Below, piece after piece: positions 37,130-54,371 of a stretch of DNA of 64,000 nucleotides (positions are counted from its first letter, which is position 1; every line of letters starts with the position of its first letter). The stretch covers positions 128,665 to 192,664 of the forward strand of contig JAGWKL010000002.1 of the NCBI GenBank assembly GCA_028865345.1, written 5' to 3'. A model generated the notes under the pieces. It did not search any database. It was not told the origin of the DNA and saw nothing but the letters and a program-made list of their open reading frames with translations. The position numbers and the translations under genes are program-made. Source of the DNA: Candidatus Omnitrophota bacterium. GTDB lineage: Bacteria; Omnitrophota; Gorgyraeia; Zapsychrales; Fredricksoniimonadaceae.

Positions 37130-37774
37130 TCATTCAGCTTTCCTTAAAATCAATTTTCGGCTCGCCAGGTCCAAGGTAAAATGAAATTTGCTTAAGAATG
37201 ACATGCCTAACAGGCCATCCCTGATTTCCTTATTATCTTCAAGTAAAACGACAGCAGGAACATCCCGGGCCTGCATGTCCCCCAACTTCACGCTGTCCAA
37301 CGACACTGCCGCGGCCTTATATTTGCCGTTAAGTACTTCCACATACCCTATTTGAGACCGGCTCAGATCAAGGCCCAGTTGGCGGGCAAACGGCCGGCTC
37401 AATAAAATCACCGGAGAACCCGTATCCACAACCAGGGAAGCATGGATTTTACCGTTAATGAATGCCTCCGCCGCCAGATGCCCCTGGGCATCGGGACTAA
37501 GGGGAATTACAATTCCCTCGATGTCACGGCGCTTCTGTTCCTCCTCCATGTTGGTATCATCGCTCAACTGTTCCTTGGCCTCCAGGATCTTTGAAAAAAC
37601 ACCCGAAGCTTCAGCCTGGGCCAGCGCCTGGCGGTCTGACTTGATGATATCACTTTCTTCATTGGCCATGGACCTGGAACACAAAAACAGACCAACCACT
37701 AGCAGCAAAACCCCTCCCCGCAACAACTGGGCATTACGAAACCGAAGCAAGCCCCGCTCAGGCCTATCGCCCAT
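37130..37774 (-). CDS. Membrane-anchored retropepsin-like (clan AA) aspartic protease
   Basis: N-terminal TM segment. Catalytic LVVDTGSPVILLS (DTG) motif and a C-terminal fold like the TIGR02281-type family. Its start lies 8 nt after the vWA stop. Confidence 0.75.
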   Translation of the reverse strand: MGDRPERGLLRFRNAQLLRGGVLLLVVGLFLCSRSMANEESDIIKSDRQALAQAEASGVFSKILEAKEQLSDDTNMEEEQKRRDIEGIVIPLSPDAQGHLAAEAFINGKIHASLVVDTGSPVILLSRPFARQLGLDLSRSQIGYVEVLNGKYKAAAVSLDSVKLGDMQARDVPAVVLLEDNKEIRDGLLGMSFLSKFHFTLDLASRKLILRKAE

Positions 37775-39491
37775 GACTTTTGCCTTTCTGGCTTTCTTTA
37801 AACGCAACTTTGGGGGCCGCTAAAGGATGCGAAGGTTCATTCTCGCTGAAAGAATAGGGAGTGATGATATGGAACTGCCCGCAGATTTTATGAATGGCAT
37901 CAATCAAGGCCCCATTGTCCTGATCGTATTTCAATTCACTGATCAAATAGTACACCTTATGGAACGCCCAGTCCCGTGCGATATCTTTACCGCCCAACGG
38001 CGCATTCTTAAGGGAGCCGCTGACAATGAACTCTTTATTATCATCGGCCGTGTCTCCCCTGATTTGAACGGCAAACTGATCTTCATTAGTGTATTTGCCG
38101 TAAATTACGAATTGCGACCCTTTAAAAAAATCCGGCATGGTCCGGGGAAAAATTTCCCGTTCATTCAGACCGCTGACATAATAGCGCACGTTCAACAAAA
38201 GCGGGTCTTTGATCTCGTCGTACAATCCGGCCAGATCCCGGCCCATAAAATACTGCCGGCCCACAACCGTTGACCAACCCCGGTTTTTAAAAGCAATAAA
38301 ATCCAGCATATAAGGATCCACGGCTGCGCCGCCGCCAAAAGTAAAAATACTGACCTTGTTATGATTGATACGGGAAATCTCGTTTATGACATGCCGGTCA
38401 TTCACAAGACCGGCAGTAGGAATGCCGTCGCTGATCAAAACCCTGTAGGACGGCACAAAAGGATGCGGCAACGTGACGCTTGTGCGCAGGGCGTCATAAA
38501 TGTCGGTCGTGGACCATGATTGCAGGCTGTGAAGAAAATCAACAGCCTTCCTGATATTGCCGGCGTCAACTTTAAGGGAAACAGGACTAAACGGTATGGA
38601 TCTATTGTTAAAAGCAAGGATATTAAAACGGTCATCGGGATTAAGGTGATGCAAGCTGTAGGCGATCCCCTCTTCCACCTGGGTCAAACGCGGCATTCCG
38701 ATGCTGCCTGAGGCGTCCACCAGGAAAATGATCTCCTTGGGGATGACGGGAAAATTAATGGTGGCATCCTTGACCTTTACAACGAGCTTGAAATATTTTT
38801 GCCCTGAAGGGGACTGGTACCTGAAGAGCTGATAAGTCAGTGCCGTACCCAAATCGGTGAGCCTGGATTTAGGCGCCTGGCCCGTGGGGCTTCTTTTCAT
38901 CATCTGGAATTCATTGTGCATATTGGCGGATCTACGGGACGTGACCAGGGCCGCCTTGGCCGGAAAAGAGCTCTTATCAAGAAAATTCCTGGAGATGTCC
39001 TCACCGGCAATAAGCACCGGCGAACCGGAGGCAAAGTTCTCCGTCGGCACTTCACCCAATTCAACCAGGTTCTCCCTCAGCGAACGGCGTACCCGTCTGG
39101 TGGTGACGATATCATTGAAATCCGATTTTCTTAAGGTCTGCGCTTGCTTGACCGATGAAGGGATGAGCGCCTGCTTTCCTTTCTGAATGGATGTCTCAAT
39201 ATTGTTCTTCACCGTTTCTTCGGATTCTATGGCCGGCTTGCTGATCAGATTTTCCAGAAAAGGATTGTCGGGTTTAGGTGATTTGCGCAAAGTCTCGGTG
39301 GCGAATTTGACCTTCGGGGTGCCCATCTGTTCTTCTTTGGCGATCGTGACATGAAAAAACATTTCCGGTTTTTCGGGGAACTCAACAGCAGGCAGCATTT
39401 TGGCAAAATAACTCCATATTAAAAACCCCGCGTGGAGGGAAAGGGAAATCCCAAGAGCGATCAATATCCTTCGCTGGACAATAACACTCAT
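37764..39491 (-). CDS. Membrane-anchored vWA-domain protein
   Basis: N-terminal TM segment. vWA MIDAS residues (FLVDASGSIG ... STTDIYDAL). The start ATG overlaps the TPR gene stop as ATGA. Confidence 0.8.
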   Translation of the reverse strand: MSVIVQRRILIALGISLSLHAGFLIWSYFAKMLPAVEFPEKPEMFFHVTIAKEEQMGTPKVKFATETLRKSPKPDNPFLENLISKPAIESEETVKNNIETSIQKGKQALIPSSVKQAQTLRKSDFNDIVTTRRVRRSLRENLVELGEVPTENFASGSPVLIAGEDISRNFLDKSSFPAKAALVTSRRSANMHNEFQMMKRSPTGQAPKSRLTDLGTALTYQLFRYQSPSGQKYFKLVVKVKDATINFPVIPKEIIFLVDASGSIGMPRLTQVEEGIAYSLHHLNPDDRFNILAFNNRSIPFSPVSLKVDAGNIRKAVDFLHSLQSWSTTDIYDALRTSVTLPHPFVPSYRVLISDGIPTAGLVNDRHVINEISRINHNKVSIFTFGGGAAVDPYMLDFIAFKNRGWSTVVGRQYFMGRDLAGLYDEIKDPLLLNVRYYVSGLNEREIFPRTMPDFFKGSQFVIYGKYTNEDQFAVQIRGDTADDNKEFIVSGSLKNAPLGGKDIARDWAFHKVYYLISELKYDQDNGALIDAIHKICGQFHIITPYSFSENEPSHPLAAPKVAFKESQKGKSHGR

Positions 39492-41848
39492 TTTAAAAGA
39501 CCGATCCTTTGCCGGGCATAGGACGCAGCCCTGCTGTTTTTATATTTATCCAGTATCTCCTCATAGGCTTTCAGGGCGTCGGGACGGCGCTTTTGGCGCT
39601 CAAAAATCCCGGCTGCCCTTAATAGACTCTCGGGGCAGTAATAATCGTCATCGTAAACCGTGGCCACCAGGAGATAATATTTGGCCGCCTCGTCCAGTTT
39701 CCCCTGGGCGCGATCGGCATTGGCCATCTCAAAGGCGGCATGCGCCGTGACTGTATAATCATCGGGATTTTCGTCCAAAGCCTTTTGGAATTCCTTTTCG
39801 GCCTCATCATACCTTTGCTGGGTCTCCAGGCATAAACCGTGGCCGATATGGGCGCTTCCGGTAAAGGCATTCTTAACACTTGAAGCTTCGACCGGATCGT
39901 AATACTTGGCCGCCTCATCGCAGCGCCCCAGCCCTCTCAAGGCTTCGGCTTTAAAATAATAAATTTCCGTCATGTCCAAAGGACCCGCTCCCCGGCTTCC
40001 AAGGCCGGAAAAACGTTTTTCCGCGTCGGCCGCCACACGAAGGACATCATCATATTTTTGTTCCTTCAGATATTGATTGCAAACCCACACATAGGTCGCC
40101 AGCTGCAGGTCATTAGGGCCCGGCAGGTTCATCAGGCGGTCAAAAAAATTCCTCGCCTGGTCGAAATTTTTCATGCCCAGATAAATGATCGCCATATTCT
40201 TGACGGCAGCCGGATAAAATTTTCCTCCTTCCTGGTTTTGGTCCACGTGCGCGTAGGCGGCCAGCGCCTGGCTGCTGTTGCCTGAAAGCTGAAGGTTATA
40301 TCCCAACAAGAAATACGCGGTATTTGCTTTTTGAGGCGAAGCTGAAGCCAAATACCCCTGCAGCAATTTGACCGCCTCGGCAGGCTGGTTGTCCTTGGCC
40401 AGGCTGTCCGCCAGGATAAACAAAACATTGCTATATTGCCGGGCCTTGGGAAATGTTTTTAAATATTCCCGGGCCCGATCGATCGCATCCCGGATATCGC
40501 CTGTCCGAACATCCATCATGATCGCGTTATATAATGCTTCCCCCTTTAAATCAGGCTGGCTTTCAAGATCATAATATTTCAAAAATAAAGCCTGGGCCTC
40601 TTTCAGGCGGCCCGCTCCCTCGCGGCAATGGGCCTCGCCCAATAGCGCCGCCTTATTAAAACGGGAACCAGGGAAATTCTGATAAACATTTTCAAAAAAA
40701 TTAAATGCTTTATCATATTCCCCCAGGCCGAAACAGCATTGGGCTTTCAGGAAAAATGTCTCGTCGGCATTCCCGGTATCGGCGGAAGAATACGCGTTCA
40801 ACAATGCCAGGGCGTCCTTATAATCTTTGTTACTGATAAAAATACCGGCTTTCTTGATAAAAATCCGGGCAGTCTCCCATGGTTTTAATCCCGGGAAGGC
40901 CAGCATGCGGTCCAGAAGTTTATTGGCCCGGTCATATTGTTTTAATTCAATATAGGCCATGACCGCCGCCAGGTGGACGTTAAAGTAAGATTCATCGTCC
41001 TTGATCCGGGACGCATATTTATGGTACTCGTCGAGCAATTGACCGTACTGCCCCAGATTGAAATAAGCCAAAAGCAGGTTGGCCAAGGCATCCTCATTGA
41101 GCCCCAGGGCCGGATACCCTTTGATCACCCGGTTGAATTCCTTGATGGCGCCGTCATATTGACCCGACAAAAACAGGACTGCGGCGATCCTATAATGCAA
41201 TTGGCCTTTAAGGGAGTCGTTCTCTGCCAGCGCCAAAGATTTGCTATACGCATCGAGGGCCTCCTGATCATGCCCCCCCTGAACCTCTATCTTGCCTATT
41301 TCCCTGAACGCATCGGCGGTATAGCCGGATGCCCCCTGGACTGCTGAAGCCTTTTGGAAAAAAGTAAGGGCTGAAGACCTATCTCCCTTATCTAAATAAG
41401 CGCGGGCCGTATAAAAATCAAACGATTGCAAAATCTGCCCCTTTAACTGTTTTCGATCAACGGACTCAAGCTCTTTTAAAGCCTCATCATATTGCTTTTG
41501 CTCGATGTCGATCTGCCCTAAACGCAAGATACTCACCGGTAATTTTCCGGAATGAGGGTAAAGTTGATTAAACTGCCTGAAAGCATCAACGGCCTTGTTA
41601 AATTCCCGGGACAAGAAATAACCCTCGCCCAGGGAAAGGTAGGCGTCCTGCAAAGACGGGCTGTGGGGATTTTCGGCAATGAACTTCCGGTATTGTGTAA
41701 TGGCCATCCCGTACATGCCGCGCGCAAGCAAACCCTGGGCAAAATCCAGCTCTTCCGCTTCCTGCACGCTGTCCTGGGCGTGCACAGGCACAGGGAACGC
41801 GCAACACACTGTGAAAATACCTGCGATAACAACGGTCCTGAAATTCAT
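39488..41848 (-). CDS. Large secreted TPR-repeat protein
   Basis: Signal peptide, then more than 15 TPR-like repeats over 786 aa. Its start lies 1 nt after the exbD stop. Confidence 0.8.
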   Translation of the reverse strand: MNFRTVVIAGIFTVCCAFPVPVHAQDSVQEAEELDFAQGLLARGMYGMAITQYRKFIAENPHSPSLQDAYLSLGEGYFLSREFNKAVDAFRQFNQLYPHSGKLPVSILRLGQIDIEQKQYDEALKELESVDRKQLKGQILQSFDFYTARAYLDKGDRSSALTFFQKASAVQGASGYTADAFREIGKIEVQGGHDQEALDAYSKSLALAENDSLKGQLHYRIAAVLFLSGQYDGAIKEFNRVIKGYPALGLNEDALANLLLAYFNLGQYGQLLDEYHKYASRIKDDESYFNVHLAAVMAYIELKQYDRANKLLDRMLAFPGLKPWETARIFIKKAGIFISNKDYKDALALLNAYSSADTGNADETFFLKAQCCFGLGEYDKAFNFFENVYQNFPGSRFNKAALLGEAHCREGAGRLKEAQALFLKYYDLESQPDLKGEALYNAIMMDVRTGDIRDAIDRAREYLKTFPKARQYSNVLFILADSLAKDNQPAEAVKLLQGYLASASPQKANTAYFLLGYNLQLSGNSSQALAAYAHVDQNQEGGKFYPAAVKNMAIIYLGMKNFDQARNFFDRLMNLPGPNDLQLATYVWVCNQYLKEQKYDDVLRVAADAEKRFSGLGSRGAGPLDMTEIYYFKAEALRGLGRCDEAAKYYDPVEASSVKNAFTGSAHIGHGLCLETQQRYDEAEKEFQKALDENPDDYTVTAHAAFEMANADRAQGKLDEAAKYYLLVATVYDDDYYCPESLLRAAGIFERQKRRPDALKAYEEILDKYKNSRAASYARQRIGLLK

Positions 41849-41849
41849 T

Positions 41850-42272
41850 TTAAGGGTTCTCGTCCTTGATCGCTGAAAAAGAAATGTCCGTCAAATGGGA
41901 ATACCCGCAGGCATCCAGGGCCTGGATCACGTATTTATGGTAGGTCAGTGCGTCCGCGCGGATAATGACCTGCTGGTTCGGGAATAATTTGGACACATGG
42001 GCCAGCATAACCGTCAGTCCGTCCGGAGTATATTGCTTCTGGTTGACGATAAAACGGCCGTCCCTGGTGATATTGATGACGATCTTGCCGGCGCTTTGGG
42101 CGGACTGGACCGCTGTTTTGGATTTGGGAAGCGTCATATTGACCTGCGCTTCCATCTGGTTATAAACGGCAATGACCATAAAAAACATCAGGGCCCAGAA
42201 AGCAATGTCCACCAGAGGGGCCAGTTGGACGATCGGCCTTTGCCGTTGATATTCAGAGACGTCGAATTTCAT
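41850..42272 (-). CDS. exbD: ExbD/TolR biopolymer transport protein
   Basis: 140 aa. ExbD N-terminal pattern with one TM (LAPLVDIAFWALMFFMV). Confidence 0.85.
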   Translation of the reverse strand: MKFDVSEYQRQRPIVQLAPLVDIAFWALMFFMVIAVYNQMEAQVNMTLPKSKTAVQSAQSAGKIVINITRDGRFIVNQKQYTPDGLTVMLAHVSKLFPNQQVIIRADALTYHKYVIQALDACGYSHLTDISFSAIKDENP

Positions 42273-42293
42273 AAGCTTCTCTCCTCGTAATAT

Positions 42294-43040
42294 TTATCGG
42301 CCGTGGATCTTCTTGATGATGTCCGAGCTGTAAATCTCCACCATATTGGTGATCTGCTGGACATGGCCGCGGAAATAGGAATACGCCATCAACGCCGGGA
42401 TGGCGACGATGAGCCCGGAGGCCGTACAGACCATGGCCTTAGAGATGCCCGCAGCCAAAAGGGTCGTTTTAAGGCTGGCTGACTGCAAAGGCACCGCACG
42501 GAAGGCCTGGATCAATCCCAGCACAGTTCCCAACAGGCCCAAAAGGGGCGCCACAGCGACGATGTCGGAAAGATAACTGATGTTTTGCCAGAGATTGGTC
42601 AATTCAACGCGGGCGGTGTTCTCCATGGCTTCGCGGGCCAAATCATCATGGTGCTGCTTTCGTTCAAGGCCGGCCAGGACAATCTTGGCAATGATGGTGC
42701 TGTTTTCCTGGCGGCAGATGGTTTGGGCGCCGTTAAAATCCCTGCTGTTGAGCTTGTGCATCACCTCATCATATAGCCCGCGCGGGACAAGCTTATTGAC
42801 ATTAAGCATCATGACGTCATAAACGATAATGGCCACGGCCGCAACCGAGAGGAAACCTATGCCGATCATGGTTAAGCCTCCGGCCTTCAGCGTCTGCCAC
42901 AGCGTCATGTCCCCGGGCATATTAGCCCCTCCTGCGCCGGATCCGGACACTTGAGCATAGGCACAATGATGTCCGTTAAGTAAAAACAAAAGAACGAACA
43001 TCCCCAACATCCAAACCGGCATATTTTTCGCATTGATCAT
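42294..43040 (-). CDS. exbB: MotA/TolQ/ExbB proton-channel protein
   Basis: 248 aa with three TM helices. C-terminal TolQ/ExbB-family core. Confidence 0.85.
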   Translation of the reverse strand: MINAKNMPVWMLGMFVLLFLLNGHHCAYAQVSGSGAGGANMPGDMTLWQTLKAGGLTMIGIGFLSVAAVAIIVYDVMMLNVNKLVPRGLYDEVMHKLNSRDFNGAQTICRQENSTIIAKIVLAGLERKQHHDDLAREAMENTARVELTNLWQNISYLSDIVAVAPLLGLLGTVLGLIQAFRAVPLQSASLKTTLLAAGISKAMVCTASGLIVAIPALMAYSYFRGHVQQITNMVEIYSSDIIKKIHGR

Positions 43041-43163
43041 GTGTCAACCCCCTCGTGATTTAAAAAATTCTACATTTTTAATTTTAACTTAAGAGACCCG
43101 CCAATACAAGAAGCAAGCAATGCAAATGTTGATTTATAAATTTTTAAATATAAAATACATCTC

Positions 43164-43853
43164 ATGCGAAAGTACTTGTTTATTTTATGTCTTTTGGTGC
43201 CGGTCTTGTGCCTGGAAGCCCGGGCCCAAGAGCAAACGCCCGAGCAGCTTTTACAAACCGTGCGCACCTCCCTGGTGGAAGTAAGGGCCGTAGCCACCAA
43301 GACCATCAGAGAAAATAACGGTGATGAAATAAGAGGAACCTACCATGCCACAGGTTCCGGCGTCATCCTTGACACCTATGGAAACATCGTCACCAATACC
43401 CATATCATCGCCAACGCCCAACGCATCTATGTCGGCCTCAGCGACGGCACCGTGCTCGAGGCAAAACGTGTATATTCCAGCGACGCTGACTTCAGCTTTA
43501 TCAAGGTCGATCCGCCCTACCCGCTTGATCCCATCAGCTGGGCTGATTCTTCACAAGCCGGGACAGGCACACCCATCATTGCGCTGACCAATAGCGACAA
43601 CGGCCAAGAGCACATCCTCGGCGGTGAAATCATCAAGCTTATCAATGGCGTTGATTCAGGCAGTGTGGAAATGTTTGAATTAAACCTTCCCCTTGTCCCC
43701 GGGGACAGCGGCGGCCCGCTTCTCGACAACGAAGGGCATTTGTTAGGACTGATCATGGGCAGGAAAACAAGCCAAGACGATAAAAGTTATGCCATAGCGT
43801 CCAATAAAATCCATCAAGAATACATGAACTACCAGCAAAATCTACCCAATTAA
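43164..43853 (+). CDS. Secreted trypsin-like (S1) serine protease, no PDZ domain
   Basis: Signal peptide. Catalytic His (TNTHIIANA) and Ser (GDSGGPL) motifs. Divergent from exbB. Confidence 0.8.
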   Translation: MRKYLFILCLLVPVLCLEARAQEQTPEQLLQTVRTSLVEVRAVATKTIRENNGDEIRGTYHATGSGVILDTYGNIVTNTHIIANAQRIYVGLSDGTVLEAKRVYSSDADFSFIKVDPPYPLDPISWADSSQAGTGTPIIALTNSDNGQEHILGGEIIKLINGVDSGSVEMFELNLPLVPGDSGGPLLDNEGHLLGLIMGRKTSQDDKSYAIASNKIHQEYMNYQQNLPN

Positions 43854-43958
43854 ATAATATTCACAACTGGATTTAAAATGAAATACCAAAAGGCTTGAGT
43901 TGTACTTCCCTGCTATGCCGAACAGTTATCTCATCGCAAACGCTTTTAAACGGACAAT

Positions 43959-44405
43959 TTATCTGCCGTACATGGCCTGCAGCTGTTCGGTTGAAGGGAT
44001 CTGGTCGTAATATTCGCCCTGCGGGCCTATATAACCGTTCCCCGATCTTTTGAGCACCACCGCCGTATATCCTCCGGTGGAATTAGGGATATTGACCGTG
44101 ACCGTGTCCCCGGAATAGGTGATGTTGGTCACAGGAGCCGGTTGGCTGACAACTACCGGCGCCGGCTGTTGGACAACAGGTTTTTGGATTTGAGAACCCA
44201 CCGCGGCCCCGGTGACGGCGCCCAACGCGCCTCCGATCAAAGCCCCTGCCCCTGTGTCATGGCTTTGATGGCCTATAATACCCCCGGCCAGCATGCCCAG
44301 AGCGCCTCCGGCGGCGGCACCTTCGCCTTCATTATTATAGGGATTGCAGCCGGCAATAAAAGCGGCGAAAACAAACACTGTCAGGACATAAAAACATTTT
44401 TTCAT
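43959..44405 (-). CDS. Glycine-zipper lipoprotein with conserved ~50-aa C-terminal domain (paralogous to 36461..36994 C-terminus)
   Basis: Lipobox FIAGC. Gly-zipper region (GALGMLAGGIIG...GALIGGALGAVTGAAVG). The C-terminus TVTVNIPNSTGGYTAVVLKRSGNGYIGPQGEYY...QLQAMYGR matches the other protein. GGGGAG RBS before MKKCF. Confidence 0.65.
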   Translation of the reverse strand: MKKCFYVLTVFVFAAFIAGCNPYNNEGEGAAAGGALGMLAGGIIGHQSHDTGAGALIGGALGAVTGAAVGSQIQKPVVQQPAPVVVSQPAPVTNITYSGDTVTVNIPNSTGGYTAVVLKRSGNGYIGPQGEYYDQIPSTEQLQAMYGR

Positions 44406-44477
44406 TTTAAATCTCCCCAAAAACAGACAATCTAAATTATAGCAAACGCTGAACTTATTTCATCTAAAATCCGCTTC

Positions 44478-44849
44478 TCAACACACAACTTCCACGGTCC
44501 AGTGTTCATTGACCCAAAGGCCGATAACCTGTTGACTGGGCCAATGCGACTTGAGGCGTTTGGCCGCATCGTTGATTTGCTGGCGGTGCAAATTTTCTGC
44601 AACAGGGTTGCCCCGGCAATCGTGGTGGCCCACCACAAAAAGCATGGTTGATTTATTTAAATTAACCGAGATGGCAACGCTGCGTAGAACTTCCCTGATA
44701 TCTTCCTGGTCAGCCAAAACATGGTCCATACCTGCCTCGGTGATCACATCCACAAAATCCACGGGATAGTTCTCTTTGATCCAGTGCAATACCGGCAATT
44801 GCACGCGGCCGTCCATACAATTAAGACATGTTGCCCGTTTATCCACCAT
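44478..44849 (-). CDS. Compact beta-carbonic-anhydrase-like Zn-binding protein (hypothetical)
   Basis: C11-x-D13-x-R15 and H75-x-x-C78 resemble the beta-CA CxDxR...HxxCG zinc triad and Asp-Arg dyad. It is only 123 aa, so the assignment is tentative. Confidence 0.55.
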   Translation of the reverse strand: MVDKRATCLNCMDGRVQLPVLHWIKENYPVDFVDVITEAGMDHVLADQEDIREVLRSVAISVNLNKSTMLFVVGHHDCRGNPVAENLHRQQINDAAKRLKSHWPSQQVIGLWVNEHWTVEVVC

Positions 44850-45001
44850 TCCTCCGCTTAAAATGTTTTACCTATTCTAACCGCTCTGTCCTTTTAGACA
44901 ACGACAATTGCATAAAAGTTCCCCCAAAAGGCGCTTCCTGCCTCCCCGGGCTTGGTGGAAAGCGCCCTCTTTTTAACACGCCGGGCAAAAATAAACCACC
45001 C

Positions 45002-45232
45002 TTAAAACTCTTTGGTTAAAATGTTATAGATCGGTTGTGATCTCAGCCAAAGCGCGGCGGATTTTGCCGGATGTTGGGCGAGATACTGCTTGGCGTAACT
45101 ATTGATCCACTCCCTGCAAGCTCTTTCAAAGCCGATATCCTTCCCGGATTTTTCGCTTTCAATCCACTTATACCTGTTGATCTCATCCAGAACATCCTTG
45201 TCTTTCAACAGCTCTGTACTTGTGATGGACAT
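45002..45232 (-). CDS. Small hypothetical protein
   Basis: 76 aa with no TM segment and a conserved-looking charged/aromatic pattern. Family not recognised. Confidence 0.45.
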   Translation of the reverse strand: MSITSTELLKDKDVLDEINRYKWIESEKSGKDIGFERACREWINSYAKQYLAQHPAKSAALWLRSQPIYNILTKEF

Positions 45233-45383: not shown

Positions 45384-46007
45384 GTGGACACTTCCTTTAT
45401 CCTTCAAGCGGCGCTCACCGGCTTGTCCTTGGGGGCTTTCTGCCTGTCCTACTGTTTCCCTTTTTTGGCCACATTGATCGCCAGCACACCTCGAAGACCA
45501 AAGGAAAACTCAAAACTCATTTTTCAGTTCATTTTCGGCCGTTTCATCGGCTATCTGCTCTTCGGCTTCGCGTTCGGTTACGTAGGAGAAAAATTCCGCT
45601 CTCCTGTCCTGACCATCATGACGGATTTTTCCATGATCCTTATTTCTGTGATCCTGGTCCTTTATCTGTGCGGGGTCATCAAACAAAAAGAATCATGTTT
45701 GTGCTCAAAGTTCCATAACCGTAACGCCATGGCCATGGGCCTGCTCATGGGCATCAACATCTGCCCGCCGTTTTTGTTGTCCCTTCCCTATGTTTTCTCC
45801 CTGCACAGCACCTGGCTTGGGATTATTTATTTTATCGTTTTCTTTCTGACCAGTTCCGTCTATTTCCTGCCCATGATCTTTGTGGGAATGCTGGCCAGAA
45901 TAAAAGAATTCCGTTTGGTGGCCCGCATCAGCGGATTTATTTGTGCGGGCATTTTCACCTTCTCCGGATTCTATTCGCTGGTCCATATCTTGTTGCCCAA
46001 GCCGTAA
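45384..46007 (+). CDS. DsbD/TauE-superfamily-like 6-TM membrane protein
   Basis: First TM carries FCLSYCFPFLATL, which is CcdA-like. A later TM has INICPPF. First gene of a 3-gene plus-strand operon. Confidence 0.55.
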   Translation: MDTSFILQAALTGLSLGAFCLSYCFPFLATLIASTPRRPKENSKLIFQFIFGRFIGYLLFGFAFGYVGEKFRSPVLTIMTDFSMILISVILVLYLCGVIKQKESCLCSKFHNRNAMAMGLLMGINICPPFLLSLPYVFSLHSTWLGIIYFIVFFLTSSVYFLPMIFVGMLARIKEFRLVARISGFICAGIFTFSGFYSLVHILLPKP

Positions 46008-46020
46008 AAATGGAGGTCTT

Positions 46021-46332
46021 ATGTTAGGCGGCGCGTTCCTTAACAGGCTTGACAAGTTCGGCATGTGGATCCTGATGGCCATGGTCCTCGGTTTCGTCAT
46101 GACCGGCTACGGCATGACCAAACACATCATGGACCCCGTGTTGGCCAAATACATCCATACCCAATTGCTGCCTCTACCGCTGCTCATATTCTTTTGCATC
46201 CATGTGATCAAAGGCGTCCGTAATCAATTTAAAAAATGGAAGATCTTCGATAATGACCGCACCCTGGACATCTACGCCTATGCCCTGGTGCTGTCCGTCA
46301 CCGCCATCCTGATCTGGCTGTTTTTCCGTTGA
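46021..46332 (+). CDS. Small 3-TM membrane protein
   Basis: GGAGG RBS. Begins 14 nt after the previous stop. Its stop overlaps the radical SAM start. Confidence 0.5.
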   Translation: MLGGAFLNRLDKFGMWILMAMVLGFVMTGYGMTKHIMDPVLAKYIHTQLLPLPLLIFFCIHVIKGVRNQFKKWKIFDNDRTLDIYAYALVLSVTAILIWLFFR

Positions 46333-47459
46333 CCATGGGTCCCATCGTCAAAAAAATTCTCGCCGGCCTGTTTTTACTCTTGATCGTCGGATCATCCGTA
46401 CTGGTGGCCATCCAGCGCCAGCGGACCATCGGCTTAGAAGAAGACCCTTCCAAATTCCATGAAGCCCTGTATTACAGCAAACTTTACGGCGGTCTTGTCC
46501 AATGCAAGCTTTGCCCCAATCTATGCATTCTGGCGCCCGGCGAATACGGCATCTGCAAGGCGCGCAAAAATATCAACGGAAAGCTCTATTCCCTGGTTTA
46601 TGGCAAGATCGCTGCCGCCCACCTTGACCCCATTGAAAAAAAACCGTTTTTTCATGTGCTGCCGGGGGCGCAGGCTTTCTCCATCGCGACCACCGGCTGC
46701 AACATCCAATGCCTTTTTTGCCAGAACTGGGAGATCTCACAGGCCTTTCCCTTTGATGTCCCCACCCGGTCCGCCAGCCCCAAACAGGTGGTGCAAGAGG
46801 CCCTGGCCAGCGGGGCCCGCGCCATTGCCTTTACTTACAGCGAGCCCGTCATTTCTTATGAATATGTGCTGGACATTGCGAAGCTGGCCAAACAAGCGGG
46901 CTTGAAAACACTCATGGTCAGCAACGGCTACATAGAGCAAAAACCGCTTAAACGCCTCCTTAAATACATCGACGCTTTTAAAGTGGATTTCAAAGGCTTT
47001 GATGAAAAGTTCTATACAAGGCTCACCGCCGGGCACTTGCAACCGGTCCTGGAAACCATGAAAACCATCCATCAAAGCGGCGTCTGGCTTGAGATCGTCA
47101 CGTTGCTTGTCACGGGACAAAACGACAGCGACAGGCAGATCCGGGGACTGGCGGACTGGATCAAAACCAACCTGGGAGATGATGTGCCTTTGCATTTCTC
47201 GCGCTTCTACCCCCAATACAAACTGCTCAATGTGCCGCCCACCCCGCCGGAAACCGTGATCCGGGCCCGTGACATCGCCATGCAGGAAGGGTTGAAATAC
47301 GTTTATACGGGAAACATCGACTACCCTCCGGGCGAAATCACCTTCTGTCCAGAATCAGGTGAAAAAGTCATCGTGCGCCGGGGCATGTTCACCATTTATA
47401 ACGGCCTGGTCAACGGGGCTTGCAGCGATGGAGAAAAAATCCCGGGGATTTGGGATTAA
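46329..47459 (+). CDS. AmmeMemoRadiSam-type radical SAM enzyme (PFL-activase-like)
   Basis: N-terminal Cys cluster (CKLCPNLC...GICKARK), then GCNIQCLFCQNW (CxxxCxxC). Confidence 0.85.
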   Translation: MTMGPIVKKILAGLFLLLIVGSSVLVAIQRQRTIGLEEDPSKFHEALYYSKLYGGLVQCKLCPNLCILAPGEYGICKARKNINGKLYSLVYGKIAAAHLDPIEKKPFFHVLPGAQAFSIATTGCNIQCLFCQNWEISQAFPFDVPTRSASPKQVVQEALASGARAIAFTYSEPVISYEYVLDIAKLAKQAGLKTLMVSNGYIEQKPLKRLLKYIDAFKVDFKGFDEKFYTRLTAGHLQPVLETMKTIHQSGVWLEIVTLLVTGQNDSDRQIRGLADWIKTNLGDDVPLHFSRFYPQYKLLNVPPTPPETVIRARDIAMQEGLKYVYTGNIDYPPGEITFCPESGEKVIVRRGMFTIYNGLVNGACSDGEKIPGIWD

Positions 47460-49668
47460 AACCCCGATGCATGCTGATAACTGCAGCTAAAGCGACATTG
47501 ATCGCCATCAACAGCAAAAGCGTTTTGTATATGCCATAGGCCGGGATCATAAATACGCTTATACCCAAAGCCCCTGCACACGAACCAAAAAGATCAGCCG
47601 CGTAAATGCTTCCCAAAAGCGCGCGGTCGTTATCATTTTGCCCGGCAAGAAACAAAGTACTGGCATAAGAAAATTCCAAGCCGGTAAAAACACCTATCCC
47701 TGCCCCCAAAATGATCCAGACCTCAGGCAAAGGAAGATAGCCATAATGGCCAGCCGCCCGCATCAACCAAAACCAGATCAGAAAATAGGCGCCCATGCCT
47801 GCATGGAGTTTGGCGATCGAAGTAAACCCGCCAGAGATTTTCTTATTGCCCCCCCAAAAGCCGGGGGACAAACCCCAAAAAGTGCCCGCCGCTGCTGCCA
47901 GCATAAACGTAGCGATGATCCAGGCGATTTTATAATAAAGATCGCCGTAAAAGACCTGAAACCCATAAATCACGATGACCTCGGCGGCCATTAAAGAAAA
48001 ACCTCCCACAGCCATGACGGCAATGAGAAGGGGCCGGTTGGATGACGATGGACCGCGGGCCCAAAGGAACGGCAAGATCAGCCCTAGGGCCCCGATCAAA
48101 ACGATGAAATAATTCGTCCGCATGAGGCGGGCGAGCAAAGCGGCGAGACCCTGATGAAAAATACTGAACCAATAGATCAGATTGTAAAGATACCCCCGCG
48201 GATGCAGATCAGTATTGATCCGGGCCGTCCTGTCTGCCTTAAAAAAATCCCCGGCCGCGGCAATACGGTCTGTGGTGTACCGGTAAACAATGGCCGGCGC
48301 GGAAAGGAAATACGTAAGGATGCCCCTGGCTTTGAGCCTGCGGATGATCACCCGCGGGTCATGGGGCAAAGCCTGTTGCGAAGCTAAGATAAAAAGCGTA
48401 TCTCCCGGAAGTAGGACGACCGAACGAAAATTGTGTTTGATCGTCCTGTATATGCAGGAGCCCAAATGCCCCAAGGTGGCCGGTATGGTATCTGCTGCAA
48501 ATTTCAAATGCGTTGCCATGACTCCGCCGGCTTTTAAATGCCCCCGAACCTCTCTGAAAAAAGCATCGGTAAAATAGCGGTTGAGCAGGGCCGTCGACGG
48601 ATTGGGCAGATTGATGATGACCACGTCCAGGTCCGATGGGAGGTTCTCAAGCGAACGGCGCGGGTCGCCTTTGACCAAAACAACCTGCCCCTTTCTCAAA
48701 ATACCGTCCAAGGAGGGCGAGAGTGCCCGGGCAAGGCCGGTCATGGCTGGATCCAATTGGGCGTAATAGACCCTTTCAGGCTTATATTTTAATATCTCCT
48801 GCAGAGCGCCACTGAAACCGGCATCTATCAAAAGTACTTTTTGGGGGCCGGCATCGGAAAGCATGGGCAAATGGACAAGATATTCATTGAACGCCCTGTC
48901 CTTATCCGTGCCCACGGGCATGCCGCTTTCATAAAAATTGAGCTGGTCCCCGGTGCGCGTCACGGCAAGATTTCCGTGCACTGAATTCTTTGTTTCCACC
49001 AACTGTTCATTGGGAAACCTTAGGGCCGCAGTCCGGAAATTCAAAGGCCCCGAAAATAAAAAACAGGCCAAACACCAAAAGGCCGCTGCCATGGCAGCTA
49101 TAAAAAATTGTTTTTTAGCGGCGACACCGCTCCACAGGAGTCCGGCAAAGACCGCCGCCAAATTCAAGGCCGCAACGACACCACAGGTCCTAAACGCGTC
49201 GGCGAACACCAACCCGTAACTGAACACCAACCCGCCCAGGACAAAACCCAGGGCTTCGTAAAGATAGGCCTTGCGCTGGTCGTCCCATTCGGACACGGCG
49301 GAAAATTGCACCCCTAAACACAGGCACAAAGGGGCAATTGCCAAAAAAGAGACCACGATCGTCGGTAAAAAATCAGGAACCTGCCCGGCGGCGGCAAAAA
49401 AACTTTTACTTAAACGCGCGGCCAGGACCGTCAGCGGGAACAATACGCAAAGCGCCAAATGGCAGATGAGAACAAGCGCAAGGCCGCGGCAGGCTTTAGG
49501 CAGGAATTTGATGGCGAGGCTGCCTGCCGCCACCCAAAAAAGCCAGGCAAACAGGATCCAGCCGATGAAAAATTCATTACCCCAAAAACTGACGATCATT
49601 TCCCGGATCATAACGATCTGGGAAACCAAAGAAGAAAAACCCAGAACAAGAACTGAAAGGAAGAACAT
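47410..49668 (-). CDS. Polytopic membrane protein with C-terminal spermidine-synthase (PABS)-like domain
   Basis: About 12 TM helices at the N-terminus. The C-terminal region VLLIDAGFSGALQEILKY resembles aminopropyltransferase/SAM-MTase folds. Its 3' end overlaps the radical SAM gene convergently by 50 nt. Confidence 0.7.
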   Translation of the reverse strand: MFFLSVLVLGFSSLVSQIVMIREMIVSFWGNEFFIGWILFAWLFWVAAGSLAIKFLPKACRGLALVLICHLALCVLFPLTVLAARLSKSFFAAAGQVPDFLPTIVVSFLAIAPLCLCLGVQFSAVSEWDDQRKAYLYEALGFVLGGLVFSYGLVFADAFRTCGVVAALNLAAVFAGLLWSGVAAKKQFFIAAMAAAFWCLACFLFSGPLNFRTAALRFPNEQLVETKNSVHGNLAVTRTGDQLNFYESGMPVGTDKDRAFNEYLVHLPMLSDAGPQKVLLIDAGFSGALQEILKYKPERVYYAQLDPAMTGLARALSPSLDGILRKGQVVLVKGDPRRSLENLPSDLDVVIINLPNPSTALLNRYFTDAFFREVRGHLKAGGVMATHLKFAADTIPATLGHLGSCIYRTIKHNFRSVVLLPGDTLFILASQQALPHDPRVIIRRLKARGILTYFLSAPAIVYRYTTDRIAAAGDFFKADRTARINTDLHPRGYLYNLIYWFSIFHQGLAALLARLMRTNYFIVLIGALGLILPFLWARGPSSSNRPLLIAVMAVGGFSLMAAEVIVIYGFQVFYGDLYYKIAWIIATFMLAAAAGTFWGLSPGFWGGNKKISGGFTSIAKLHAGMGAYFLIWFWLMRAAGHYGYLPLPEVWIILGAGIGVFTGLEFSYASTLFLAGQNDNDRALLGSIYAADLFGSCAGALGISVFMIPAYGIYKTLLLLMAINVALAAVISMHRGFNPKSPGFFLHRCKPR

Positions 49669-49693: not shown

Positions 49694-51292
49694 CTACATT
49701 TCCCGGGCTTCGACTGTCCCCGAATGTCCCTTGTATACGGGGATCATGAGGACAAAAGGAACACAGGTAAAAAACATAAACATCAAAAACATAGAAATAT
49801 CATTGTACGCCATCATCTGGGCCTGCTGGGTCACCAGCCTGTTGATTAAGTCCATGGCCGCCTGCTTGGCTGTGCCTAAAGACATGCCCTGCCGGTACAG
49901 AAACGCCGTTGCCTGATGGAAAAACCTCTCAAAATTCGGATTAAAAGGATTGATATGCTCCGCCAGATAGACGTGATGGACCTGGGAATTCCTCTCGAAC
50001 AAGGTTGCCATGACCGCGTATCCAATATTGCCGCCGACCTGCTGGAAAAGATTAAACAGCCCTGATGCGGATGTCATAAGTTCCTTTTCCACGGAACTCA
50101 AAGCCACCGTCGATAAGGAAATAAAAATGAACGGCAGCCCGCTGCCCATCAAAAGAAGGGACGGCACGATATTACCCTGTCCCGCCGTGGTTGCCAGATG
50201 GGCCAACTGGAAGTAAGAAACGTTCACGACCGCAATGCCGTATAAAATCAATGCCCGCGGGTCTACAAGATTGTATAGCTTCCCGACCAAAGGCAGGACG
50301 CATATCAAGGCGATGGCCCTTGGCATCAGCACCAGGCCGGACTGATACGCCGGATAATTTAAAAGCTGCTGGGTAAACTGAGGTAAAATAAACGAAGTGC
50401 CGTACAGTGCTATCCCGAACAAAAGAATGACCACGACCCCCATGCGAAACTGGGCATTTTTAAAAATCCTTAAATTTACCACCGGCTCTTCGACGGACAA
50501 TTCCCAGACCACCAGCGCCAAAAGTGTTATCACTGTGAAAACCGCGGTCCATGCGATCCAACTGGACTCAAACCAGTTTTCCTGCTGCCCCCTTTCCAGG
50601 AAGACCTGCAGGCCGGTCAGGCCAAGCGTCAGCAAAACGATACCTGCCACATCTATCCTCTTGACACCCCGTTGAAGATAGGGAGGGTCAAAGACAAAAA
50701 GGCTGACCAAAAGCATCCCCACGACACTCACAGGTATGTTGATATAAAAAATCCACTGCCAGCCGTACTGGTCCGTGAGCCAGCCCCCTAATACCGGGCC
50801 GACGGCAGGCGCCACCACCACCCCCATGGAAAAAATCGCCATGGCCATGCCCTGTTCATTTCTGGGAAAAGTCTCGCGCAGGATGGCCTGGGCCAAAGGC
50901 ACCAGGCTCCCTCCGCCCATGCCCTGCAGGACGCGGCAGGCGATCATCTCCGGAAAGGTATGCGACATGCCGGCCAGGATCGACCCCACGGTAAAAACGA
51001 CAAAGGAAAGCAAATAAAAATTTTTTCTGCCCAAAAGACGCACCCACCAGCCGGACATGGTCAGCATGATGACGGCGGCGATGCTGTAGCTCGTCGCCAC
51101 CCAGGTGATCGCGGAGAGGTTCTGGCCGAAGCTGCCCATCATATGGGGAAGGGCCACATTGACGACATTGACGTCCATGATCGCCATGAAGGCGCCGAGA
51201 ACGACCGAAACAGCTACGGCCCATTTATTGGGGCTGTATTGCGCCGGGGGCGCCTGCCCCCCGGCTTTTGGGGGCAAAGAGGAGGAATTCAT
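49694..51292 (-). CDS. emrB: MFS DHA2-family efflux transporter (EmrB/QacA-like)
   Basis: 532 aa with 14 predicted TM helices and DHA2 motifs. Confidence 0.85.
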   Translation of the reverse strand: MNSSSLPPKAGGQAPPAQYSPNKWAVAVSVVLGAFMAIMDVNVVNVALPHMMGSFGQNLSAITWVATSYSIAAVIMLTMSGWWVRLLGRKNFYLLSFVVFTVGSILAGMSHTFPEMIACRVLQGMGGGSLVPLAQAILRETFPRNEQGMAMAIFSMGVVVAPAVGPVLGGWLTDQYGWQWIFYINIPVSVVGMLLVSLFVFDPPYLQRGVKRIDVAGIVLLTLGLTGLQVFLERGQQENWFESSWIAWTAVFTVITLLALVVWELSVEEPVVNLRIFKNAQFRMGVVVILLFGIALYGTSFILPQFTQQLLNYPAYQSGLVLMPRAIALICVLPLVGKLYNLVDPRALILYGIAVVNVSYFQLAHLATTAGQGNIVPSLLLMGSGLPFIFISLSTVALSSVEKELMTSASGLFNLFQQVGGNIGYAVMATLFERNSQVHHVYLAEHINPFNPNFERFFHQATAFLYRQGMSLGTAKQAAMDLINRLVTQQAQMMAYNDISMFLMFMFFTCVPFVLMIPVYKGHSGTVEAREM

Positions 51293-52182
51293 TTTGTTTT
51301 ACCTGAACTCAAATCGATCACGGGGACAACCGACATCCCCAGGACTAAAGGCCTTTTGGGATCGAGGGGCCCGTCAAAAATAATTTTAACGGGAACGCGC
51401 TGAACGACCTTGATGTAGTTGCCCGTCGCATTCTCGGCAGGCAGCAGGCTGAATTTTGAACCGGTCCCCTGCTGAATGCTGTCCACATGCCCGTGGAAAA
51501 CGGCCCCCGGATAAGCATCGACATGGATCACCACCTTCAATCCTGGATGGACATGCGTCATCTGCGTTTCTTTTAAATTAGCCACCACCCACCGGTCGGG
51601 AAAAACAACGGCCATCAGGGCCTGCCCCTGCTGCACGGACATGCCGGGTTCGACGCTCTTTTTGGTCACCGTTCCGTCGGCCGGCGAGGTGATTTTCGTA
51701 TAGGAAAGCTCAAGCTCTGCCTGTTCAAGCCTTGCCCGGGCCGCATCCACCTTGGCCTTATCAGTGTTCCAGCGCAGCATTGCCATATCAAACTGACGTT
51801 GGGAGATGTCCTTGGTGGCGAGCAATTTCGTATAACGCGCCACATCCTGCTTCGCCTGATCGGCATCGTCCTGTTTAGCTTGAAGGTCGGCCTTGGCCAG
51901 ATCAAAAGCGGCCTTATAATCACGGGGGTCTATATTACAAAGAAGATCGCCCGCCTTGACCGGTTGATTGTCATTGACATAAACTTTTTCAATATACCCC
52001 GAGACCCTGGGGCTGATGACAGTCACATCACCTTCGATAAAGGCATCGTCGCAGGATTCATGGGTAAAGACATAGTGCAGGACAAAGGCCAGCACCACCG
52101 CGGCAGCAATAGTCAATACGGACGCTATTTTCCAGAATCTCCGGTGAAACTCGTAAACCTTGCTGAATATCCTGCTGACCAT
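51289..52182 (-). CDS. emrA: HlyD-family membrane fusion protein (EmrA-like)
   Basis: N-terminal TM, coiled-coil and beta-barrel/lipoyl-like segments. Its start overlaps the tolC stop. Confidence 0.85.
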   Translation of the reverse strand: MVSRIFSKVYEFHRRFWKIASVLTIAAAVVLAFVLHYVFTHESCDDAFIEGDVTVISPRVSGYIEKVYVNDNQPVKAGDLLCNIDPRDYKAAFDLAKADLQAKQDDADQAKQDVARYTKLLATKDISQRQFDMAMLRWNTDKAKVDAARARLEQAELELSYTKITSPADGTVTKKSVEPGMSVQQGQALMAVVFPDRWVVANLKETQMTHVHPGLKVVIHVDAYPGAVFHGHVDSIQQGTGSKFSLLPAENATGNYIKVVQRVPVKIIFDGPLDPKRPLVLGMSVVPVIDLSSGKTK

Positions 52183-52200
52183 AATGACCTCTCTGCTTTT

Positions 52201-53574
52201 TTAAGAACGGCTTAAATGGAACGACTCTGTGCGGCCCAAGGCCGAATAATAGTTCACCCGCGCCATGTGATATTGTACCAGAGCCGACACATAAGATTGG
52301 CGTGTATTTTCAAGGGCGGCCTGGGCGTCGACCACCGCGATGTTATTGCCGACCCCTTCTGTGTATTGGCGCCTGGCAAGCCCCAGCTGTTGGCCCGCCA
52401 GCCGCAAAGCCTCGCTTGCGGCCTTCACCTCTTCCGTCGTCGTGCTCAACGTCTGCAGCGCCAGGCGAACATCCTCCTGGACTTGCGTTCGCATATCATC
52501 GTAAAGAGTCTTGGCCTGCTTAACCTGGGAGGCCTGTTGCCGGATCTCCCCTGCGATCTGTCCTCCTTCGAAAATGGGCACACTCACATTGACGGCGATC
52601 TGCGCGGCTTTATGGGCATATTTGTCGGGTTCAACGGCGGACTGCCCATAATTCCCGTAAAGGTCCACCTTGGGCAATCTTTCCCTGACCGCCTCCGACA
52701 GCCGGTATCGGGCATACCTGACCTTTGAAGAAGCAATGGACATCTCCCATCTATGTTTAAGGGCCGTGGCAATGGCATCAGAAAGCCCCATGGGTTTTTC
52801 TTTAAAAAAGATCAGGGAATCGCTTAAACTGAGTTCGCTGTTCAAAGGCAATCCGATGATACGCTTGAAGCCGAGCATTGCCGTGTCGAGCCTCTCAATA
52901 TCTTCCTGCTCCTTGGCACGCCGCTCTGCCAGCCGCGTTTGGGCCCTGACCACGTCCAAATTAGTGACAACACCCACTTTTAATTGGTGTTGGGCCAGGG
53001 ACACAAGCGTTTGGGCCAGACGCAGGTCTTCTTCAACGGCCTTTAATTGTTCCTGGGCCTGCAGCACATCCAGATAAGAAATGACTGCGGCCGTGACCAC
53101 CTGTTGTTGGGCCAGTTCTTTTTCCTCCCTGGCCATGGCCACGTCCATTTGGCCCGCCTGAAATTTGGATATGGCGCTCAAATCAAAGATCCGCTGGGTG
53201 ATTTGGAAGCGCGCATCGAAAGTATTGAACGGCCCGATAACGCCGAAAGCAGGCAGGCCCTGACCGGCGAAATTCTCCCAGAAAACCCTCCCTTGAGAAG
53301 CCCCGAACGAAAGATGGGGAAGAAGATCAGAATCGTTCTGCCATAGGCGGCCCCTGACTTCATCGATTTTTTCCACGGCGATCTTGAGCAGGACATTGTT
53401 GTGTTTGGCATCATCAATGGCTTGGGTAAGGCTGAGGTCCAAGGTCATGCCCTCATCATTGATTTCCTGCACGTCGTCTGCAGCCCGGGAAATAGGACCG
53501 AAACCCGTTAAGAAAAACACACTGACGAGCAATATCCCAAGCCTAACTGCGTTCCTTTGAGTTGTCATAATCAC
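52201..53574 (-). CDS. TolC-family outer-membrane efflux protein
   Basis: Signal peptide. Duplicated coiled-coil and beta repeats over 457 aa. Confidence 0.8.
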   Translation of the reverse strand: MIMTTQRNAVRLGILLVSVFFLTGFGPISRAADDVQEINDEGMTLDLSLTQAIDDAKHNNVLLKIAVEKIDEVRGRLWQNDSDLLPHLSFGASQGRVFWENFAGQGLPAFGVIGPFNTFDARFQITQRIFDLSAISKFQAGQMDVAMAREEKELAQQQVVTAAVISYLDVLQAQEQLKAVEEDLRLAQTLVSLAQHQLKVGVVTNLDVVRAQTRLAERRAKEQEDIERLDTAMLGFKRIIGLPLNSELSLSDSLIFFKEKPMGLSDAIATALKHRWEMSIASSKVRYARYRLSEAVRERLPKVDLYGNYGQSAVEPDKYAHKAAQIAVNVSVPIFEGGQIAGEIRQQASQVKQAKTLYDDMRTQVQEDVRLALQTLSTTTEEVKAASEALRLAGQQLGLARRQYTEGVGNNIAVVDAQAALENTRQSYVSALVQYHMARVNYYSALGRTESFHLSRS

Positions 53575-54089
53575 TTTCCAATTTCCCTGGCCCTGTTCCT
53601 CAGCCGTACAAGCAATTCGTTGAATATTTTCTTCTCATGAGCAGTAAGGACCTTACACAGATCATGGATGATCTTATAAAATCCCGGCAATATGTCTTCC
53701 AACAGTTTTTCTCCTTTGGGCAACAACTTGATCCTATTGACCCGGCGGTCATGGGGGTCGCTGATACGTTCCACCAGGCCCTTGCGGGAAAGGCTGTCCA
53801 CCAATCCGGTGATATTAGCGCGGCTGACGAGCATCAGTTGGCTGATCTCATTTTGTTTGCAAGCCTTGGACGGGCTGCGGCTCAATATCCTCAAAACATT
53901 AAACCCCGCCCGGGTGATCCCGAATGAGGTAACTGCATCCGACAGATGGTCGTTGACCACATCAAAGGTATACGTCAGGTTCAAAGCCGCTTCCACCGAA
54001 GGCCAGTCAAAGGCCGGATATCGGGCCCCGTGTTTTTTGACCTGGCTCCAATAGTATTCTTCCCTTCTGTCAATTTTGTGTTCCGGCAT
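53571..54089 (-). CDS. MarR-family transcriptional regulator
   Basis: Winged-HTH region (ISQLMLVSRANITGLVDSLSRKGLVER). The start MPEHK has a GGAGG RBS. Confidence 0.8.
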   Translation of the reverse strand: MPEHKIDRREEYYWSQVKKHGARYPAFDWPSVEAALNLTYTFDVVNDHLSDAVTSFGITRAGFNVLRILSRSPSKACKQNEISQLMLVSRANITGLVDSLSRKGLVERISDPHDRRVNRIKLLPKGEKLLEDILPGFYKIIHDLCKVLTAHEKKIFNELLVRLRNRAREIGK

Positions 54090-54355
54090 ATCGATCCCTC
54101 CTCCCTTCATGGCAAGCTTACAACGCCGGCTGTAATTTGTCAAGTACTTAACAGTTAATTACTTTACAAAATACGCACTTGCGCCCCAGGCAATAAGTAA
54201 TTTTACGTATGGCAAATTTCAACCTTTCGTAGTATGATTTCCCATCATTCCTCAAGCGCAAAATGCTTGAGCAGTGCGCCCTTCGGCGTCGCTTGGTTGT
54301 GTCATTGCAAGGCCCCGAAGGCGACGAAGCGATCTTATGGCTAATCACCTTTTAT

Positions 54356-54371
54356 AGCACATCGATGTGCT
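54356..54371. promoter_or_regulatory. Perfect 16-bp palindrome AGCACATCGATGTGCT upstream of amtB
   Basis: Lies about 120 nt upstream of the amtB ATG and is a candidate operator. I did not recognise the family. Confidence 0.3.

Follow-up and report, generated by a model that had tools for sequence, protein, structure and literature searches.

A 123-residue beta-carbonic-anhydrase-like protein of the Pro_CA_2 family in Omnitrophota, with relatives encoded beside phosphoenolpyruvate carboxylase

The gene and its start codon

We analysed a window of 64,000 nucleotides (nt) from a Candidatus Omnitrophota genome (GenBank assembly GCA_028865345.1, contig JAGWKL010000002.1, positions 128,665–192,664 of the forward strand), and describe here a small minus-strand gene whose product resembles the core of a carbonic anhydrase (CA) of the beta class. 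The open reading frame (ORF) comprises 123 amino acids (aa), its coordinates in Table 1 including the stop codon, and its translation in the ORF list of the window reads MVDKRATCLNCMDGRVQLPV...GHHDCRGNP...VEVVC. Two short motifs carry the predicted zinc ligands Cys11, His75 and Cys78 and the predicted catalytic dyad Asp13–Arg15; these residue numbers had been given in a first-pass annotation made from the letters alone, and reading the codons returned the same ones. On sequence grounds the ORF is a real gene, because it has 1184 homologues and a full-length Pfam match. The motif pair, written as C.D.R followed after 40–80 residues by H..C, occurs once among the 174 window frames of at least 100 aa, namely in this ORF; composition-preserving shuffles of those frames gave a mean of 0.06 occurrences.

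The start codon has been placed differently in public annotation. The best homologue (P0001), 100% identical, comes from a Candidatus Omnitrophica metagenome-assembled genome (MAG), is named 'hypothetical protein' and begins MDGRVQ; the public gene call with the Met12 start is in GCA_028866185.1, contig JAGWIR010000008.1. This start is probably wrong, because it removes both the predicted zinc ligand Cys11 and the first beta-strand of the predicted fold. We take a longer start, 10–11 codons upstream of Met12, to be right because residues R5–C11 are invariant in 32 close homologues. Cys11 is retained with either the ATG (Met1) or the GTG (Val2). Of these the GTG seems the better fit to the N-terminus of the homologues: it yields the beginning MDxRATCLNC, and their alignment begins M-D/E-x-R-A-T-C. 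A Shine-Dalgarno-like sequence and a sigma-70-like promoter match lie upstream, although in a consensus scan of the region the count of sigma-70-like sites around the gene was not above shuffled expectation.

Table 1. Coordinates of the Pro_CA_2 gene, its signals and neighbours in the window, and of loci in related genomes
Feature	Position	Strand	Basis or remark
Mini beta-CA-like coding sequence (Pro_CA_2)	44478–44849	-	ORF list, Pfam PF20393, 1184 homologues, AlphaFold2 model
Motif 1, C11-M-D13-G-R15	44805–44819	-	codons read; predicted first Zn ligand Cys11 and catalytic Asp-Arg dyad
C11 codon (TGT)	44817–44819	-	sequence
D13 codon	44811–44813	-	sequence
R15 codon	44805–44807	-	sequence
Motif 2, H75-H-D-C78	44616–44627	-	codons read; predicted second and third Zn ligands
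H75 codon	44625–44627	-	sequence
C78 codon	44616–44618	-	sequence
Met1 ATG start	44847–44849	-	1 nt past GGAGG
Alternative GTG start (Val2), 122-aa product	44844–44846	-	4 nt past GGAGG
Met12 ATG, start in public annotation, 112-aa product	44814–44816	-	probably wrong
Shine-Dalgarno-like GGAGG	44851–44855	-	read from sequence; inference only
Sigma-70-like promoter match (TTGTCT, 16 nt, TAGAAT)	44874–44901	-	consensus scan, 9/12 matches; weak evidence
VWA to glycine-zipper lipoprotein block	37764–44420		
76-aa ORF	45002–45232	-	also a gene in the public record (L168)
Divergent cluster	45384–47459	+	
DsbD_2-type membrane protein, 207 aa	45384–46007	+	
752-aa multi-pass membrane protein	47410–49668	-	
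MarR to ammonium transporter region	49694–55727		
Public gene call with Met12 start, 112 aa	L168 3001–3339		
Pro_CA_2–PEP carboxylase loci	L041 5001–6843; L042; L043 (same protein L169–171); L172; L173–174; L098–101; L106; L111; L119; L135		
HHDGGG variant of Pro_CA_2	L173 2625–2984		
Nitrosopumilus-type locus	L049 4367–6637		
14 further syntenic loci	L050–L054, L060, L064, L066, L068, L073, L076, L077, L083, L086		

Family membership and conservation

Against the Pfam model PF20393 (Pro_CA_2, 'Putative carbonic anhydrase'), for which the cutoff is 30 bits, the window protein scores 147.3 (E = 3.4e-43), and the match runs over residues 3–123 of the protein and positions 3–125 of the 125-position profile. 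In a large protein collection 1184 homologues were found at E ≤ 1e-3, the PF20393 domain being present in all 120 that were listed; several carry the Joint Genome Institute (JGI) name 'carbonic anhydrase'. At the same threshold there are 743 clusters represented at 50% identity, mostly stand-alone proteins of ~120–135 aa. In length, motifs and stand-alone architecture the window protein is typical for the family. The family name is itself a database prediction, and since PF20393 is already catalogued as a putative CA, the idea of a miniature CA is a rediscovery of that prediction and does not define a new class.

Conservation was counted over the best 150 of the 743 cluster representatives, which are 32–56% identical to the query, bar one 82% fragment. 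The first-pass annotation had made its case depend on C11, D13, R15, H75 and C78 being kept among homologues, and this was borne out: the predicted zinc ligands and dyad are 96–99% conserved (C11 in 140/141, D13 in 144/147, R15 in 141/147, and H75 and C78 each in 149/151). Other widely kept positions are G14 (145/147), D34 (147/150), G40 (142/149), S61 (146/151), N81 (130/150) and P82 (122/150). The window protein has all eleven of these residues, none of which falls below 81% among the 150 representatives. H65, kept in 130/151 family sequences, is Asn in the window protein. The family motifs can be written C(M/I)DGRVQxP and HxDC(A/R)GNP; ligands and dyad are kept in homologues from Nitrosopumilus, Halobacillus, Desulfitispora and others, at a spacing of 63–67 residues.

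Predicted fold and comparison with known enzymes

An AlphaFold2 model of the window protein, built from a 103-sequence alignment, reached a predicted local distance difference test (pLDDT) score of 98.3 and a predicted template modelling score (pTM) of 0.92. It shows a five-stranded, mainly parallel alpha/beta core with the element order b1(5–10)-aA-b2-aB-aC-b3(69–75)-aD-b4-b5. Cys11 follows strand 1, helix A begins with the Asp-Arg dyad, and strand 3 ends in His75, with Cys78 after it. Strand 1 starts as early as residue 5, and the chain stops 2 residues past strand 5.

In a Foldseek search of the PDB the top 50 matches were all beta-CAs or the beta-CA-derived carbonyl sulfide (COS) hydrolase, with a probability of 1.00 and template modelling (TM) scores on the query of 0.57–0.72; the best was Cab, 1g5c (E = 1e-6). 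A family profile searched against PDB sequences retrieved the beta-CAs 3las, 1g5c, 6jqd, 6y04 and 1ylk as well as the carbon disulfide (CS2) hydrolase 3ten. In the profile alignment CxDxR faces the CMDSR of 3las, 1g5c and 6jqd, and HxxC faces the HTDC of solved beta-CAs. The E-values of this profile search are marginal, 1.5e-3 to ~1, and an unrelated designed protein, 7uek, scores alike. Taken with the model, these matches lead us to predict a beta-class CA fold for the window protein. The first-pass annotation had named an unrelated fold, such as a simple zinc ribbon, as an outcome that would undo its proposal; the alpha/beta model and its PDB matches are of another kind. Its remarks on size and on missing terminal helices also stood, the model having neither an N-terminal arm nor a C-terminal subdomain, and the 123 aa comparing with 170 aa in the smallest characterised beta-CA.

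That enzyme is Cab of Methanobacterium thermoautotrophicum (1g5c), which is described as the smallest characterised beta-CA, with a five-stranded core, the zinc ligands Cys32, His87 and Cys90, and a dimer with a large interface (PMC4519908). Cab belongs to clade D and is the best structural match to the window protein (TM-score 0.67 on the query), sharing the five-stranded core and the Cys/His/Cys pattern at a sequence identity of ~20%. The window protein is ~47 residues shorter, with 10 residues before the first Cys where Cab has 31, and 45 past the last ligand where Cab has ~80; the spacing from the first Cys to the His is 64 residues, against 55 in Cab. In solved clade D enzymes CMDSR and HTDCG stand in place of the Pro_CA_2 motifs given above. 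The COS hydrolase of Thiobacillus thioparus (3vqj) and the CS2 hydrolase (3ten), found by the structure and profile searches, have the same fold but are larger, at 204–213 residues. Another point of comparison is the tandem-repeat beta-CA of Porphyridium purpureum (1ddz): some Pro_CA_2 relatives are tandem too, whereas the window protein has a single domain.

Distribution and linkage to phosphoenolpyruvate carboxylase

Pro_CA_2 relatives were found in at least 586 genomes in a scan of one genome per species, for which a narrower family alignment was used, the diverse alignment being too variable. These genomes include Omnitrophota, Altiarchaeota, Methanobacteria, Elusimicrobia and many Nitrosopumilus, and also Thermodesulfatator, Halobacillus, Desulfitispora, Anaerolineae and Calditrichia. 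Neighbouring genes are almost random across phyla, with 175 Pfam families over 142 neighbouring genes. The only specific recurrent neighbour among those 142 is the archaeal-type phosphoenolpyruvate carboxylase (PEPC; PF14010).

In ~11 archaeal and bacterial lineages the Pro_CA_2 gene lies directly upstream of the PEPC gene on the same strand; the two overlap or are separated by up to 55 nt, in otherwise dissimilar surroundings. The figure combines the genome scan, a metagenome scan and six PEPC-centred look-ups. The lineages comprise Methanobacterium, Altarchaeum, two Candidatus Omnitrophica MAG lineages, Methermicoccus-like contigs and several metagenome lineages, and their PEPC-linked Pro_CA_2 proteins are 50–78% identical to each other. 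In the look-ups the pair was present in three of the six lineages and absent from Chloroflexi, Syntrophoarchaeum and one deltaproteobacterium. PEPC uses bicarbonate as its substrate. Because PEPC consumes bicarbonate, a conserved pairing with its gene is what a bicarbonate-supplying CA would predict, and the linkage supports a CA role for the Pro_CA_2 family. We found no report of this gene pair in the searchable literature, nor, in literature searches, any characterisation of a CA in combination with archaeal PEPC or with Altiarchaeota.

Loci in ammonia-oxidising archaea

In marine ammonia-oxidising archaea the Pro_CA_2 gene stands between genes for a 3-methyladenine glycosylase and an Nramp metal transporter. 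We noted 15 such syntenic loci, nearly all in Nitrosopumilus or other Nitrosopumilaceae MAGs. A same-strand Nramp gene follows Pro_CA_2 in 14 of the 15 (after a 2-nt gap in L049), and in 13 a ferritin gene comes next. In Nitrosotalea the carbonic anhydrase gene cam is co-localised with mntH (PMC4836417); the Nitrosopumilus gene order mirrors this arrangement and was therefore counted towards a CA role. According to one genome paper, neutral-pH ammonia-oxidising archaea are missing the CA gene, among others, and for this reason Pro_CA_2 could be an unrecognised CA of these organisms.

Proposed function and alternatives

Four things were observed in silico: that the protein belongs to the family, which fold it is predicted to have, that ligands and dyad are conserved, and that the gene is linked to PEPC in relatives. 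That it binds zinc and is catalytic, and also its substrate and oligomeric state, are what we infer from them. We consider it reasonably probable that the window protein binds zinc through Cys11, His75 and Cys78, uses Asp13–Arg15 to activate water, and converts cytoplasmic CO2 to bicarbonate and back. It would then be a cytoplasmic zinc enzyme of ~122–123 aa representing the bare catalytic core of a beta-class CA. Zn(II) would be held by the three ligands at the C-terminal edge of the parallel beta-sheet, with water or hydroxide as the fourth ligand. Asp13, fixed by a salt bridge to Arg15, would orient and activate the zinc-bound water, and the resulting hydroxide would attack CO2 to give bicarbonate; the reverse reaction would run as well. 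The protein may dimerise by sheet extension, as in Cab, and its likely physiological role would be to maintain the cytoplasmic CO2/bicarbonate equilibrium for bicarbonate-dependent carboxylases.

Several observations weigh against this proposal. The canonical beta-CA model PF00484 (Pro_CA) scores only 15.8 bits on the window protein, below its gathering score of 25.7 (E = 0.017), in a weak, co-linear partial match over profile positions 3–73 of 156; among relatives E-values reach 4e-4. No NCBIfam model was found for the family, PF20393 has no mention in the searchable literature, and literature searches turned up neither an assay of any PF20393 member nor a characterised small or truncated beta-CA like Pro_CA_2. 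In canonical beta-CAs the N-terminal arm and the C-terminal subdomain help to form the dimer and the active-site cleft, and the modelled window protein has neither that helical arm nor that subdomain. The tandem relative P0121, whose model (pLDDT 90, pTM 0.68) served as a dimer proxy, has the tandem beta-CA 1ddz as its top PDB match, yet the whole-chain TM-score is 0.28 at a root-mean-square deviation of 20 Å. A PEPC-linked protein on a Methermicoccus-like metagenome contig reads HHDGGG for HHDC(A/G)G, so that Cys78, the third predicted ligand, is replaced by Gly, and its C-terminal region is shorter; the gene copy may have degenerated, or the sequence may contain an error. Closer to the gene at issue, the family-conserved F5, H65 and A79 are replaced by R, N and R in the window subclade, there is no PEPC gene in the window (tblastn) and no carboxylase gene beside the mini-CA gene, and the window protein is 50–57% identical to the PEPC-linked relatives. 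With such identity and no PEPC link of its own, the PEPC argument therefore transfers to the window gene by homology and not from its own context. Finally, the COS and CS2 hydrolases use the same Cys/His/Cys and Asp-Arg catalytic set.

Known hydrolases of COS and CS2 have diverged from beta-CAs, and the window protein might likewise be a zinc hydrolase on the beta-CA fold, acting on COS, CS2 or a related heterocumulene and having little CO2 hydratase activity. COS hydrolase ranks high among the structural matches (3vqj, 3vrk), and 3ten came up in the profile search. Pro_CA_2 also has near-invariant residues of its own (D34, S61, N81, Q17, T37 and G40); the residues immediately after VDxITEPG, which a single profile alignment covers, face the canonical RNAGG loop of 3las; and the window subclade has altered the residue beside a predicted zinc ligand (A79 to R). 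We nonetheless think such a hydrolase improbable: the recurrent linkage to PEPC points to CO2 and bicarbonate, no recurrent sulfur-metabolism neighbours appeared among the 142 neighbouring genes, and the modelled window protein is without the N- and C-terminal extensions that in known COS and CS2 hydrolases narrow the substrate channel and restrict access to the metal. The Asp-Arg dyad, which is the catalytic signature of beta-CA-type hydratases and near-invariant here, would be superfluous for mere metal binding, and it speaks against a non-catalytic protein that senses, buffers or delivers metal, or senses CO2 or bicarbonate, through a Cys2His site. What could be read in favour of a protein of that kind is the Nramp gene next to Pro_CA_2 and the ferritin gene after it in most Nitrosopumilus-type loci, the sporadic fusions to MerE-like, receiver and (via a His-rich linker) methyltransferase domains, the extra Cys8 that gives C8-x-x-C11 in the window clade, and a DsbD_2 membrane protein encoded nearby on the opposite strand. 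The CA–Nramp pairing, however, is also seen with the Nitrosotalea cam gene, the fusions are rare and have no recurrent partner in 26 longer members, and Cys8 is not conserved in the family, where Ala occupies the position in 73/140; a metal-handling or sensing role thus seems unlikely to us. That the motifs arose by chance, in a small ORF that is spurious or encodes something unrelated such as a zinc ribbon, might be suggested by its short length and by a single-sequence search of PDB sequences that returned only noise (DJ-1, E = 0.13). The homologues with their 743 representatives, the full-length Pfam match, the confident alpha/beta model that matches only beta-CAs, and a motif pair found once where 0.06 were expected refute this explanation.

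The proposal of a minimal cytoplasmic CA can also be carried further. Pro_CA_2 proteins might be fully active CAs of ~120 residues, the smallest known, acting as dedicated bicarbonate suppliers of archaeal-type PEPC and as a so far unnoticed cytoplasmic CA in lineages for which no known CA genes are reported, such as the neutral-pH ammonia-oxidising archaea (Nitrosopumilus, for example); the window subclade might then be a specialised paralogue, never linked to PEPC, with altered substrate, altered anion binding or redox control through C8-x-x-C11. We regard this extended version as conceivable and lean slightly against it.

The window subclade

Within the Omnitrophota subclade of the window protein R5, C8, N65 and R79 are invariant. 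Most family members carry F, A, H and A there instead, and only 1–3 of the 150 representatives show the subclade's combination. Arg79 directly follows the predicted ligand Cys78, and in the few other representatives with Asn65 the two residues go together. We considered Cys8 as a fourth ligand, which would make a Cys3His structural zinc site, and rejected it for the family at large, in which Ala predominates at position 8; in the window clade such a ligand is conceivable.

Unusual members of the family

Four proteins (P0121, P0124, P0126 and P0134) are natural tandem duplications that keep both sets of motifs intact. Matches of the P0121 model to KaiC, at a TM-score of ~0.2, were dismissed as meaningless. 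In P0137 a response-regulator receiver domain is fused to Pro_CA_2 and Arg15 is replaced by Glu; P0169 has Pro_CA_2 followed by a His-rich linker and an S-adenosylmethionine (SAM) methyltransferase; and P0227 joins a MerE-like membrane domain to Pro_CA_2.

Genomic surroundings

Immediately upstream of the mini-CA gene and in the same orientation lies the 76-aa ORF, which has a weak, sub-threshold match (E = 0.0014) to the last, C-terminal part of DUF4032, with the motif KWIESEKSGKDIG among the matched residues. Beyond it a divergent cluster encodes the DsbD_2-type membrane protein, a small membrane protein of 129 aa with no Pfam match, and a radical-SAM enzyme of 376 aa; converging on this cluster is the gene for the 752-aa multi-pass membrane protein, which has a spermidine-synthase domain. 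On the other side of the mini-CA gene, a block encodes a VWA protein, a 786-aa TPR protein, ExbD, ExbB, a trypsin-like protease and a glycine-zipper lipoprotein. This block is the sole side that is syntenic in related Omnitrophota (L001–L003 and L168), and in another Omnitrophota relative the Pro_CA_2 gene lies between genes for DUF4914 and SAICAR synthase. Because synteny is confined to one side and one lineage, and neighbours are near-random across phyla, we discarded the notion of a local functional cluster around the window gene. Further along, genes for a MarR regulator, an outer-membrane factor, an HlyD-type adaptor and an MFS efflux pump are followed by one for an ammonium transporter, in what looks like ordinary chromosomal context.

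Significance

The window protein is a further member of a catalogued family; what this work usefully adds is the pair with PEPC, the breadth of the distribution and the recognition of a truncated public gene call. A 2024 review describes the CA toolkit of autotrophic Archaea as sparse and suggests that new CA forms may still be found; PF20393 is not mentioned in its main text. For the window itself the practical gain is modest: a 'hypothetical protein' can be properly named and its start codon corrected. The Pro_CA_2–PEPC pair is a directly testable physiological hypothesis. If catalytically active, Pro_CA_2 would be a minimal beta-CA that works without the terminal arms credited with building the dimer and the active-site cleft, which would be relevant to enzymology and to the engineering of small, robust catalysts for CO2 capture. 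It would then be the smallest CA known, and a widespread one to be added to gene inventories of inorganic carbon use and the carbon cycle.

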